A DNA stretch of 64,000 nucleotides from Candidatus Thorarchaeota archaeon (GCA_029855935.1 JAGSHN010000027.1:121348-185347), one strand, 5' to 3'; shown: positions 47,256 through 64,000, counted from the stretch's first letter. Notes: a model not told the origin generated them from the sequence alone. Numbers and translations are program-made.

Positions 47256-47429
47256 ATGACGGCAACGAACGTCTCATCCGACTTTCCGGACCTCCCGGAT
47301 CCTCTCCCTTGGGAGGCGATGCCAGAGACCCCAGAGCCAGTGACTCCGTGGGAGGCAATGCCTGATCTTCCAGACCCCCTCCCCTGGAAGGCAATGCCGG
47401 AGACCCCAGAGCCAGTGACTCCTTGGTGA
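47256..47429 (+). CDS. 57-aa multi-core Pro/Trp repeat peptide (precursor-like)
   Basis: MTATNVSSD-FPDLPDPLPW-EA-MPETPEPVTPW-EA-MPDLPDPLPW-KA-MPETPEPVTPW. The repeat copies differ by 10 synonymous and 1 non-synonymous changes. Confidence 0.8.
   Translation: MTATNVSSDFPDLPDPLPWEAMPETPEPVTPWEAMPDLPDPLPWKAMPETPEPVTPW
47286..47426 (+). repeat. Tandem duplication with 75-nt period
   Basis: 47286-47351 aligns with 47361-47426 codon for codon. Confidence 0.9.
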
Positions 47430-47437
47430 GCGGATTC

Positions 47438-47492
47438 ATAGGGTCGCAGGACGCAGAGGGCGCCCTCTGGCCCTATCCCCTCCCCTTTTTTT
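47438..47492 (+). terminator. Stem-loop plus T7 tract terminator after the peptide gene
   Basis: ATAGGG...CAGAGGGCGCCCTCTG...CCCTAT, then a pyrimidine run ending in TTTTTTT (47486-47492). Confidence 0.65.
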
Positions 47493-47536
47493 CTCAAAGT
47501 TGATTAGGCCGAAGCCCAATCGGGAATCGACCCCCC

Positions 47537-61948: not shown

Positions 61949-62847
61949 CTCTCAGTGAGAAACACCTCCATCGACTGTCCCTGCCGTAGCGCTTCGGAGA
62001 TGCGTAGGGCTGGGACCTCCAGAGCCAACGACGGCGCAGCGACATCAACCGGAACAGCCACAACAGCCATCGAGGAGGATACGGAAACGATGCTACCCGC
62101 GGGACGCGCCTCAAGCACACTCGACACAAACTGAGGATCACCAGACACGACATAACTCCCACTTGGTCCCCCAGTCCGTAGCACGGGCAGCTCCCACAGT
62201 ATCGCTCTCAGATCAGGCGGACAACCAAAGACCCCGGGCTGACGGGAGAGGATGTCGGCTCGGCTGGAGAGAACTGCGACAAAGTTCTCGGCCGTCACAA
62301 TGGTCAGTGGCACTAGGTCATCCTCTTCAAGTAGCGCAGGGAGGACTGCAGCATCGTCGCTCTGCACTAGAACTATTCGCCGTCCAACCCCCGTGTGAAC
62401 TGGTCCATCCTTGACCCGGGAGGAACGAACTCTCTGTACCGACTGTCTGCCGAACAGTGTAAGCGAGCGAAGCCCACGAGATATTCCATCGGGTCCAGCC
62501 CTGCTCACCATCCGCAACAGCGCAAGCGTGAGAAACATTCCTCCGAGGGCAGGGAGGGCCCCCATATCGAGGAGAATGAAGAAGACCAGCAATGACACGT
62601 ATAGACTGCTCACAGTGGCGATGACCCCGACAACTCTCTGAAGCCTCGGCCTCATAGAGAGTGTGCCAGACATCAGCGTGAGAACGAAGATGGGAACGGC
62701 AGTCAAGATGAACGGGCCCCATGCCCCGACACGAGCAGACAGGGCGACCACCGTGAGCCAGCGGAAGAGTGGTATGCCCACCACAAGGAACACGACCACA
62801 GCAACCGTCAGTCTGACGATCTGCCGAATAGGTAGTCCAAGCAGTAT
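61945..62847 (-). CDS. Membrane protein (about 4 TM) with soluble C-terminal domain
   Basis: Hydrophobic N-terminus. Frame open from 62847, directly after the upstream TAG; first canonical start is GTG 62799. Confidence 0.6.
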   Translation of the reverse strand: MLLGLPIRQIVRLTVAVVVFLVVGIPLFRWLTVVALSARVGAWGPFILTAVPIFVLTLMSGTLSMRPRLQRVVGVIATVSSLYVSLLVFFILLDMGALPALGGMFLTLALLRMVSRAGPDGISRGLRSLTLFGRQSVQRVRSSRVKDGPVHTGVGRRIVLVQSDDAAVLPALLEEDDLVPLTIVTAENFVAVLSSRADILSRQPGVFGCPPDLRAILWELPVLRTGGPSGSYVVSGDPQFVSSVLEARPAGSIVSVSSSMAVVAVPVDVAAPSLALEVPALRISEALRQGQSMEVFLTER

Positions 62848-63519
62848 CTACACCCCCTGGAAAGGTTCGTGCGGACGCATCAACTCAATCTCGAAATAGC
62901 TCCCGGCCGTGTGGTGCAGCCGCGCAATTGTGCGCGTTGGCTTCCCGTCCTCACAGAGAAGAAGGTCGGACACCCCACGTCGGGAAGACCTTCGCATGAG
63001 TACGTCCCAGTCACAGTACCTCCGGATGACGCTGTGGTGAACTGCATCCACAAGACTCTCCTTGACCAGCCTACTCTCACTGATCACTATGATGTTGGTC
63101 CCGCGGGACAACCTGACAGCGGCCAAGAGAGGCATAGTCTCCTCTAGCATCTCTCGTCCCCACATCACAGGGTCATTCCGGGCCATATCGAGGACGCGAG
63201 TGACCGGGTCGATGACCACAAGCTCTGTGTCAGGACCCAGGCTATGAGGCAATGCCCTCACCCACTTCACCGCCCTGCCGTGGTCCGATGTTACCGAGAC
63301 CGCCACATGCGATGGATCTCCGCCGTGACGCGCAACGGCTGCCTGGAGAAGACGCACGGAGGCTCGCTTTCCGTCTAGTGAGTACCACTCGACCAGCCCT
63401 CGACGTGATGCCGCAGCTGCCACAGCACAGGCAAAGATTGTCTTTCCTGTTGCTGGGAGCCCCCAGACGTGAACAAGGCCCTCCAAGCCCATCTGATCGA
63501 GCGACACCGCAGAGACCAT
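62848..63519 (-). CDS. RadB-like RecA-superfamily ATPase
   Basis: WGLPATGKT (Walker A), YSLDGK, LVVIDPVT (Walker B). ATG at 63519. Confidence 0.8.
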   Translation of the reverse strand: MVSAVSLDQMGLEGLVHVWGLPATGKTIFACAVAAAASRRGLVEWYSLDGKRASVRLLQAAVARHGGDPSHVAVSVTSDHGRAVKWVRALPHSLGPDTELVVIDPVTRVLDMARNDPVMWGREMLEETMPLLAAVRLSRGTNIIVISESRLVKESLVDAVHHSVIRRYCDWDVLMRRSSRRGVSDLLLCEDGKPTRTIARLHHTAGSYFEIELMRPHEPFQGV

Positions 63520-63523
63520 CCCA

Positions 63524-64000
63524 TCATCCCCCTTCCCGTTTTCTCGTCTCGTTCTTCTCCCGCCCCGGTTCTGAAGACACGGAATTGGCTGCCGCCACAC
63601 TCTCAGACGGGCTGTCCGAGCCGAGCATTCGAAGCACAGCGAGTTCCTCCTCGGTCTGTACGCTGTCCCTCTCCGTGCCAAGAGATGACCCTGAGATCGA
63701 CTCCTCTGAGTCCGTATCATCGGCAGGTGTCTCCTCACCAAGCTCGCGAGAGAGTCTCTGAGCAGTGTATTCCATTGCCCACGCGTTCAGTATGTCGTCG
63801 ACCTCTTCCTTCGCGTCCGGTCCGAGGACACCCATATCAAATAGCGCGTTGGCGAGAGTACCGAGATGCTCAGCAATCTCATCCTCTCCGATGTCTTCAC
63901 TCAGTGAGGCGGATGTCAGTGCCACGTATGCGTGTGCCAGCTGGGCGCGGTCGAAGTGGGGGACAAGCACATCGAAGAGCCCGAGGAAGACGCCCAGTCC
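63524..64000 (-). CDS. Hypothetical helical protein with acidic low-complexity tail, 5'-truncated by the window edge
   Basis: Reading frame open to the window edge; stop 4 nt before the RadB-like ATG. Confidence 0.6.
   Translation of the reverse strand, partial: GLGVFLGLFDVLVPHFDRAQLAHAYVALTSASLSEDIGEDEIAEHLGTLANALFDMGVLGPDAKEEVDDILNAWAMEYTAQRLSRELGEETPADDTDSEESISGSSLGTERDSVQTEEELAVLRMLGSDSPSESVAAANSVSSEPGREKNETRKREGG

Follow-up and report, generated by a model that had tools for sequence, protein, structure and literature searches.

A 19-gene supercluster of Thorarchaeota containing a predicted giant surface protein, Lrp/AsnC-fold proteins, and paralogs of recombination enzymes

The stretch of Candidatus Thorarchaeota archaeon DNA analyzed here (GCA_029855935.1 JAGSHN010000027.1:121348-185347; 64,000 nucleotides, called the window) ends with a 17-kb block of genes, at positions 47256-64000, that encodes a predicted giant surface protein, two regulator-like proteins, and a series of proteins related to recombination enzymes. 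The source genome is labeled G000, and the last base of the window is the end of its contig C4. Compared assemblies are labeled in the same way (G003, G007, G012, and so on); G003 is nearly complete, belongs to the same genus, and is the closest complete relative. All elements listed in a preliminary description of this DNA were found by an open reading frame (ORF) map and domain scans. The block is uninterrupted, with no further gene between those listed below, as had been claimed for housekeeping genes.

The first gene (47256..47429, plus strand) encodes a repeat peptide of 57 amino acids (aa), defined by the ORF map and Tandem Repeats Finder. It is followed on the same strand by gene B (47537..49528), whose 663-aa cytoplasmic product was characterized from the ORF map and an AlphaFold model. 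Gene C (49537..57552, minus strand) is a 2671-aa ORF identified as the giant surface protein from Pfam matches and transmembrane (TM) prediction. B and C are convergent, and only 8 bp separate their stop codons. Gene D (57553..58155) lies on the same strand as C and encodes a 200-aa polytopic membrane protein, as judged by hydropathy; its stop codon abuts the ATG of C. A 135-bp intergenic region (58156..58290 on the gene map) lies between D and the divergent gene E (58291..60231, plus strand; 646 aa), a distant paralog of B detected by profile-profile comparison, and presumably holds the promoters of both units.

E converges with the end of a minus-strand operon, the two stop codons being 5 bp apart. 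The last operon gene, F (60237..61214), encodes a divergent FEN1 paralog recognized from an XPG_I match and alignment. Continuing from F toward the end of the window are G (61218..62045), a RadB/Rad51-fold protein matched by the Rad51 Pfam and RadB TIGR02237 models; H (61945..62799), a 284-aa membrane protein defined by hydropathy and its orthologs; I (62848..63519), a RecA/KaiC-fold ATPase identified by an AAA_25 match and alignment; and J (63524..64000), of which the C-terminal 158 aa were recognized by tblastn with the G003 ortholog and the rest lies on contig C10. The start of G is ambiguous, the first in-frame ATG being at 62045 and the longest ORF extending to 62162. I probably starts at 63519, 4 nucleotides past the stop codon of J, with the longest ORF extending to 63741.

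In G003, ten genes on the same strand precede J, I, H, G, and F. In G000, tblastn placed these ten genes at the end of contig C10 (C10:49733-61586) and divided the G003 J ortholog between two contig ends, with residues 23-356 at the end of C10 and residues 348-483 at the end of C4. The end of C10 (L029 17561-17587) and the reverse-complemented end of C4 (window 63974-64000) have an exact 27-bp overlap that is in frame within J. The cluster is therefore contiguous, and the assembly break falls inside J. The 17-kb stretch is the distal 16.5 kb of a ~28.4-kb, 19-gene supercluster that is specific to Thorarchaeota and vertically inherited. Its layout is a tightly packed 15-gene operon (g1-g10, J, I, H, G, F), then E, D-C, and B, such that the operon ends tail-to-tail with E, D-C is divergent from E, and C is tail-to-tail with B. 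When the regions upstream of B, g1, and the peptide gene were compared with the D-E intergenic region, only one 9-mer was found in common and no inverted repeat was found.

Several of the genes on C10 encode proteins with recognizable relatives. The product of g3 is a RadA paralog with HhH and Rad51 domains that scores 270 bits on PRK04301; the canonical RadA of G000 is encoded on a separate contig, C16. Helicases are encoded by g6 (XPD/Rad3-like; DEAD_2 and Helicase_C_2 domains) and g10 (Hel308/Ski2-like; DEAD and Helicase_C domains), and g4 encodes a Zn-ribbon protein. The product of g7 is a small membrane protein of ~200 aa with 1-2 TM segments. That of g9 is a membrane-anchored, HerA-like protein of ~790 aa, also with 1-2 TM segments, in which the Walker A motif is degenerate. 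No product could be assigned to g1, g2, g5, or g8. The preliminary description had proposed inspecting the sequence beyond base 64000 for a HerA- or VirB4-like protein; on the joining contig g9 is such a protein, albeit one with a degenerate P-loop.

Conservation of the block was assessed by tblastn and all-against-all BLASTP in eight relatives from eight genera and in a ninth genome, G374, giving ten genomes with G000. The order and orientation of g1 to F, E, and D-C are unchanged across this set, and the core is retained in 10/10 genomes. The complete order J-I-H-G-F, E, D-C, B is identical in G003, G007, G012, G013, and G374. B always lies at one end of the block, either beside the giant gene (at least 25 genomes), with which it is tail-to-tail, or, as in some genera, before g1. 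It occurs in 74/85 genomes of family f1 and is essentially absent from 315 other genomes of the phylum. The giant gene is single-copy in 63/86 genomes of family f1 and in 21/23 of the high-quality ones. Where both F and the giant gene were found, the distance from F to the head of the giant is 3-6 kb in 16/18 genomes; in the remaining two, which are fragmented assemblies, the two genes lie on different contigs. Among the database matches listed for the B family and the giant, all named homologs are from "Candidatus Thorarchaeota archaeon".

On this evidence the block is almost certainly one conserved, co-inherited unit. The linkage of regulator-like, giant surface, and recombination genes noted earlier is thus a conserved one. 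The accompanying caveat that their adjacency might be coincidental does not hold for B, E, C, D, and the operon, which keep their order and stay linked across relatives; it is the peptide gene that is unlinked (below). No description of the cluster was found in the literature, and the gene set is without a described counterpart.

A domesticated or resident mobile element, for example a conjugative element or a provirus, might be suspected from the HerA/VirB4-like protein, the many fast-evolving proteins of unknown function, and the location of B, which flanks one end of the block or the other depending on the genus. We consider this origin highly improbable. The ORF maps gave no sign of an integrase, a tRNA, or an att-like boundary, and the GC content is uniform along the stretch and equals that of the genome. 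The block occurs in almost every genome of the family, its divergence parallels that of housekeeping genes, and the flanking housekeeping genes are common to G000 and G003.

B and E have no similarity to each other by BLASTP. Nevertheless, the two proteins are distant paralogs because their ortholog profiles align in hhalign with a probability of 97.8% (E 7.8e-13, 423 columns). Orthologs of E were found in all compared genomes. B has no Pfam or NCBIfam match, and an exhaustive HMMER search of 1.84 billion proteins recovered 166 representatives of its family. An AlphaFold model of B built from a 67-sequence alignment had a predicted local distance difference test score (pLDDT) of 92 and a predicted template modeling score (pTM) of 0.90. 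In this model an N-terminal β-domain and a helical domain precede a C-terminal tandem Lrp/AsnC-like di-module, each unit consisting of a winged helix-turn-helix (wHTH) and a RAM domain.

The closest structural relationships of B are confined to this C-terminal part. A Foldseek search with the model matched NirDL (PDB 4czc; E 3.4e-5), and residues 319-656 of B superimpose on NirDL with a VIA Z score of 10.6 over 266 aligned residues. At least ten Lrp/AsnC regulators align over their full length to residues 486-634 (VIA Z 4-5), and E aligns by hhalign to the Lrp/AsnC-like region of B. B and E are therefore both assigned the Lrp/AsnC fold, a wHTH followed by a RAM domain (β-α-β-β-α-β). The "tandem-HTH" label first given to B was essentially right, but the predicted fold is specifically a tandem of Lrp/AsnC units, as in NirDL. 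B resembles the Lrp/AsnC regulators and, in its tandem (wHTH + RAM)x2 arrangement, the NirDL/AhbAB siroheme decarboxylases, but B and E differ from both groups in having ~320 extra N-terminal residues and no similarity at the sequence level. No confident structural match was found for those ~320 residues, which form the β-domain and the helical domain of B. Zincin helical domains were considered for the latter and rejected, the Z scores of 3.5-4.2 being below a useful level. B and E represent a new protein family of narrow distribution, characterized by its tandem Lrp/AsnC module.

In some genera (genus labels g3 and g5) a second, stand-alone copy of B is present (L034 18084-19862 and L038 12494-14392), and no other gene of the cluster lies within 10-18 kb of it. 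G338, a genome assembled as a single contig, has a B homolog (C1:2707445-2709359) that is split, contains three in-frame TGA codons, and lies ~570 kb from the giant gene, measured across the contig start; this split homolog may be a pseudogene.

C has Pfam matches to Big_1, Big_3_5, Filamin, MG2, and Prenyltrans. From the N terminus its parts are a signal/TM segment, a ThuA-like α/β domain, two α/α toroids, a long run of immunoglobulin (Ig)-like domains, a C-terminal TM segment, and a short tail. It is predicted to be a type-I membrane protein exposed at the cell surface, and it carries 55 NxS/T sequons. Nine orthologs of 2597-2671 aa are collinear, with the head (residues ~200-900) being the most conserved part. 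C ORFs across the genomes of family f1 encode ~2,600-2,770 aa, and the 43 database clusters of C are all from Thorarchaeota, the complete ones having ~2,580-2,630 aa. Such constancy of length from genus to genus, at ~2,600 aa, is unusual for a surface protein.

The head of C was modeled with a pLDDT of 90.5. Its ThuA-like domain was matched with VIA Z scores of 15-17. The toroids are closest to the β-subunit of protein prenyltransferases, with a Z score of 24.3 and a root mean square deviation of 2.8 Å over 263 aligned residues for geranylgeranyltransferase I β. They also resemble squalene-hopene cyclase (Foldseek match to 3sqc, E 8.7e-7; Z 21). The columns equivalent to the cyclase DxDD motif are variable in C (G-V-E in G000), and so the catalytic acid of the cyclases is not conserved. 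Likewise, no Cys column is conserved among 37 sequences, although Cys is one of the ligands (D, C, and H) of the prenyltransferase Zn site. We infer that the toroids are binding modules rather than enzymes.

Comparison with two groups of known proteins places C apart from both. Like the α2-macroglobulin and complement proteins, C has macroglobulin-like and Big-type Ig domains together with a toroid, which could be aligned to the thioester domains of C3, C5, CD109, and TEP1 with Z scores of 15-17. However, the toroids of C are N-terminal, double, and closer to the prenyltransferase β-subunit and squalene cyclase (Z 21-24). An identity as a thioester protein was rejected because the sequence of 2671 residues contains no CxEQ motif. 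The giant Ig-repeat adhesins of bacteria are, like C, long membrane-anchored stalks. Adhesin repeat numbers are usually variable, whereas the length and domain number of C are fixed across genera. The cytoplasmic tail after the C-terminal TM segment contains a conserved LP[TVE][DE]W[DE] motif (LPxEW-type) in 9/9 orthologs of the giant (window 49537-49650), and a partner in the cytoplasm might dock at this motif.

D has ~4-5 TM segments by a crude hydropathy method. Its orthologs are 35-49% identical and have invariant PG...RY, WTR, and R.GD motifs. It had been labeled a "dead zincin", a label for which Pfam and PDB profile searches gave no support: D lacks HExxH, seven orthologs had no Pfam match at E<=10 (including DUF3267/M50), and no PDB-profile match was found.

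The operon's second copies of RadA, XPD/Rad3, Hel308, and FEN1 keep their catalytic residues and evolve faster than housekeeping genes. F matches XPG_I with an E-value of 1.2e-17 but scores only 112 bits on TIGR03674, against a cut-off of 352. It is therefore a paralog and not the housekeeping FEN1, which in G000 is encoded on contig C14. Seven paralogs all retain the active-site carboxylates D27, D80, E152, E154, D173, D175, and D236 (canonical numbering), a hairpin segment of 10-12 residues is deleted, and a C-terminal QxxLxxW[FLT] motif resembling PCNA-interacting protein (PIP) boxes is conserved. F is accordingly predicted to be catalytically intact. F of G000 is 54% identical to that of G003 and 43-53% identical to those of other genera, compared with 74 and 64-69%, respectively, for canonical FEN1; the paralogs therefore evolve faster, yet they are retained.

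A second, long-branch Fen1 of Asgard archaea that lacks the β-hairpin, Fen1-2, has been described beside the canonical Fen1-1 (PMC12680538). In the passages of that work concerned with it, Fen1-2 is regarded as a gene of the replisome with a relationship to eukaryotic Fen1, whose possible ancestor it is discussed to be (PMC12680538). F most likely corresponds to Fen1-2, judged by the published description: a long branch, a coexisting canonical copy, and a missing β-hairpin segment are common to both. The difference is one of setting. F closes a membrane-linked 15-gene operon, and gene context is not mentioned in those passages (PMC12680538). Because F belongs to a specialized, fast-evolving operon, the long branch of Fen1-2 may stem from a shift in function and not from proximity to eukaryotes. 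The published inference concerning Fen1-2 would be affected, with long-branch effects being possible in that phylogeny (PMC12680538).

G and I appear to form a pair of RecA-like proteins, one active and one inactive. G matches the Rad51 Pfam model with an E-value of 1e-4 and RadB TIGR02237 with 8.5e-13. All orthologs have HGPxRAPL[ST] in place of the Walker A motif but retain Walker B, and G is therefore a predicted pseudo-ATPase. I matches AAA_25 (E 1.4e-5), and its Walker A motif (GxxGSGKT) and Walker B Asp are invariant; by sequence it is an active RecA-like ATPase, paired with the P-loop-dead, RadB-like G.

The other operon products considered here are membrane proteins, TM segments being predicted by hydropathy in g7, g9, J, and H as well as in D. 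H has 3-4 N-terminal TM segments and a soluble C-terminal domain, and its orthologs are only 21-25% identical. J is a protein of ~490-560 aa with two TM segments. Neither H nor J gave a meaningful PDB-profile match. The g9 profile matches HerA chains weakly (8ziq, E 0.003; 8xau, E 0.011). At the Walker A position, 7/7 g9 orthologs have CGGxxxxRR, and ATP binding is therefore doubtful.

A block of helicases and nucleases could also be an anti-virus or anti-plasmid defense island. In PADLOC, HamB helicase models of the Hachiman system matched the Hel308 paralog (E 2e-43), and type IV CRISPR DinG matched the XPD paralog (E 7e-80). These matches are to the generic core of superfamily 2 helicases, and no PADLOC model was matched by F, G, I, B, E, g9, J, or any other cluster protein. 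Moreover, the block contains a strand-exchange recombinase. Nearly all genomes of the family have it as a single, syntenic copy that is inherited vertically, in contrast to the patchy distribution of defense islands. We therefore regard a defense function as improbable.

The repeat peptide consists of a 9-aa leader followed by four Pro-rich cores, each ending in Trp. The internal repeat has the form A-B-A-B and was assigned a period of 36-39 and a score of 125 by Tandem Repeats Finder. A second copy is present in G000 at C6:96877-97047 (L030 8878-9048). The two copies differ at 23 synonymous and 4 non-synonymous codons; the four non-synonymous changes are all within the first eight residues, and residues 9-57 (49 aa) are identical. 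The excess of synonymous changes and the identical cores show that this is a real gene under strong purifying selection. Similarity between the copies is confined to the coding region, and their contexts differ. In G003 the homolog comprises the leader and four perfect QFMPGRPEPDTPW units (L032 1498-1683, minus strand). It is on contig C3, whereas the cluster is on C1.

The preliminary description had cast this peptide, as a speculation, as the secreted, pheromone-like signal of the locus, sensed by B and E and switching on an adhesin and recombination genes in the manner of RRNPP or ComX systems. The idea draws on a gene under very strong selection that lies 107 bp upstream of B in G000, on cores that end in Trp, and on the prenyltransferase fold in the giant. 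ComX is prenylated on Trp. Synteny largely refutes this model. Only 2/41 related genomes, G000 and G003, contain the peptide, which in G003 is not on the contig that carries the cluster; no peptide-like ORF was found upstream of B in eight relatives; and the second copy in G000 is in an unrelated context. None of the three copies has a signal sequence, the copy beside B lacks a hydrophobic N terminus, and B and E are Lrp/AsnC-like and not receptors of the tetratricopeptide repeat (TPR) type. The sole prenyltransferase-fold domains at the locus are the toroids of the giant, which are extracellular and have no conserved Cys or DxDD.

The likeness to RRNPP and ComQXPA systems is thus limited to the gene layout of one genome, in which a regulator-like gene is immediately preceded by that of a small peptide. 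Unlike an RRNPP system, the locus has no export signal, no TPR receptor, and no conserved peptide-regulator pair, and Pfam scans of the locus revealed no ComQ, ComP, or ComA domain. Peptide signaling at this locus is, in our estimation, very unlikely. The peptide is a separate, genus-restricted gene that adjoins B by chance in G000 and is not a component of the cluster. What stands of the earlier interpretation is the conserved link between cell surface and DNA processing, without the peptide. The peptides form a small family of repeat peptides, with three copies in three unrelated contexts. A 60-aa wHTH ORF (window 46860-47042) precedes copy 1 and a 152-aa wHTH + TM protein (L030 9202-9660) follows copy 2, such that a small wHTH gene neighbors both copies.

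The most likely function inferred for the supercluster is the handling of DNA at the cell envelope. Specifically, we favor, with moderate confidence, a 19-gene unit in which the operon products process DNA at the envelope, C and D face outward, and B and E have a regulatory or scaffolding role. The operon products would form a complex on the inner side of the membrane, and this membrane assembly would process DNA that crosses or contacts the envelope, by import or exchange followed by recombination. C with D would form the outward-facing part and provide a contact or a spacer of defined length. B and E, possibly sensing a ligand, would control or scaffold the two transcription units. That the surface module and the recombination operon work together is, on balance, probable; that their activity is DNA import or exchange is a more tentative suggestion.

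The principal alternative is that two unrelated modules are neighbors, with C and D (and B and E as regulators) serving the envelope, an S-layer, or adhesion, and the operon serving cytoplasmic or membrane-tethered repair. Reduced operons in other Asgard families are in keeping with such a separation. In G030 (family f7; L039 2416-6527) RadA-like, g9-like, and FEN-like genes lie within 4 kb, and in G043 (family f15; L040 1114-5265) a Hel308-like gene accompanies a g9-like gene. A shift of B/E relative to the operon in some genera and the extra B copies remote from cluster genes in some genomes are also consistent with two modules, as is the head of the giant, which has a fold of the sugar- or lipid-binding type and no DNA-related domain. 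Against this, F and the giant gene remain 3-6 kb apart in nearly all genomes where both were found, across many genera and despite other local rearrangements, and B and E both remain at the borders of the block. Furthermore, four operon proteins are membrane proteins, and the operon therefore already acts at the envelope. We accordingly consider two independent modules the less likely explanation, although it is the rival to which we give most weight.

Several observations weigh against envelope DNA handling by a single unit. The giant, D, B, and E are not near the reduced operons of G030 and G043; a recombination core thus need not be accompanied by the surface module. NirDL, a fusion of two Lrp/AsnC-like units, is a siroheme decarboxylase; the fold thus also occurs in enzymes, and B and E need not bind DNA. 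The relationship of g9 to HerA is putative, the profile matches being weak (E 0.003). No 6-7-TM channel, pilin, or active translocase ATPase was recognized among the cluster proteins, and there is therefore no evident path for DNA through the membrane. No RNA run is listed as containing the locus; the one data set so listed is the hydrothermal-vent metagenome from which it probably came. Finally, conserved adjacency alone does not prove joint function.

The closest described systems are the chromosomal DNA-import systems Ced of the Sulfolobales and Ted of the Thermoproteales (PMC9905601). These systems are defined by an active VirB4-like ATPase (CedB/TedB), a VirB6-like channel with 6-7 TM segments, and a VirB2-like pilin (CedA1/TedC), and Ted loci carry Rad50 and HerA (PMC9905601). 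Both they and the present supercluster are archaeal chromosomal clusters in which a protein of the HerA/VirB4 type (putatively so for g9) and small membrane proteins are encoded beside recombination genes, and in both cases the proposed role links the transfer of DNA to homologous recombination. However, the HerA-like g9 has a degenerate P-loop and is apparently unable to bind ATP. Ced and Ted, for their part, have no giant Ig-repeat protein, no RadA, XPD, Hel308, and FEN1 paralogs, and no B/E proteins. No cluster protein with the 6-7 TM segments of a VirB6/CedA-like channel was found by crude hydropathy, no search for CedA/TedA homology having been made, and no VirB2-like pilin was recognized in the cluster, g7 and g8 not having been compared with pilins. 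As far as these features show, the supercluster is not a member of the Ced/Ted group.

If the block is one machine, it would represent an undescribed form of envelope DNA handling in archaea, in a lineage close to the origin of eukaryotes, and would bear on the origin of gene exchange and of specialized recombination paralogs. A bolder and rather doubtful proposal is that Thorarchaeota carry a chromosomal, vertically inherited apparatus for cell-to-cell DNA exchange, in which the giant, with its fixed length, establishes or gauges contact between cells and a dedicated paralog set then processes the incoming DNA and recombines it at the membrane. That set would comprise the RadA copy, the Hel308-type and XPD-type helicases, Fen1-2, and the active/dead pair of RecA paralogs. 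Were this true, the closest relatives of eukaryotes would possess a prokaryotic parallel to the division between "housekeeping" and "sex-specific" recombination proteins.

Just upstream of g1 are genes for an ATPase resembling Rad50/SbcC (433 aa), a phosphoesterase resembling Mre11/SbcD (357 aa), and a ligase of the GH3 family (515 aa), at L029 286-2668 and 3578-5125, all on the minus strand. The Rad50/SbcC-like and Mre11/SbcD-like pair is also near the cluster in G003, G012, and G014, and the GH3 gene is also near it in G003, G007, G012, G005, and G010.

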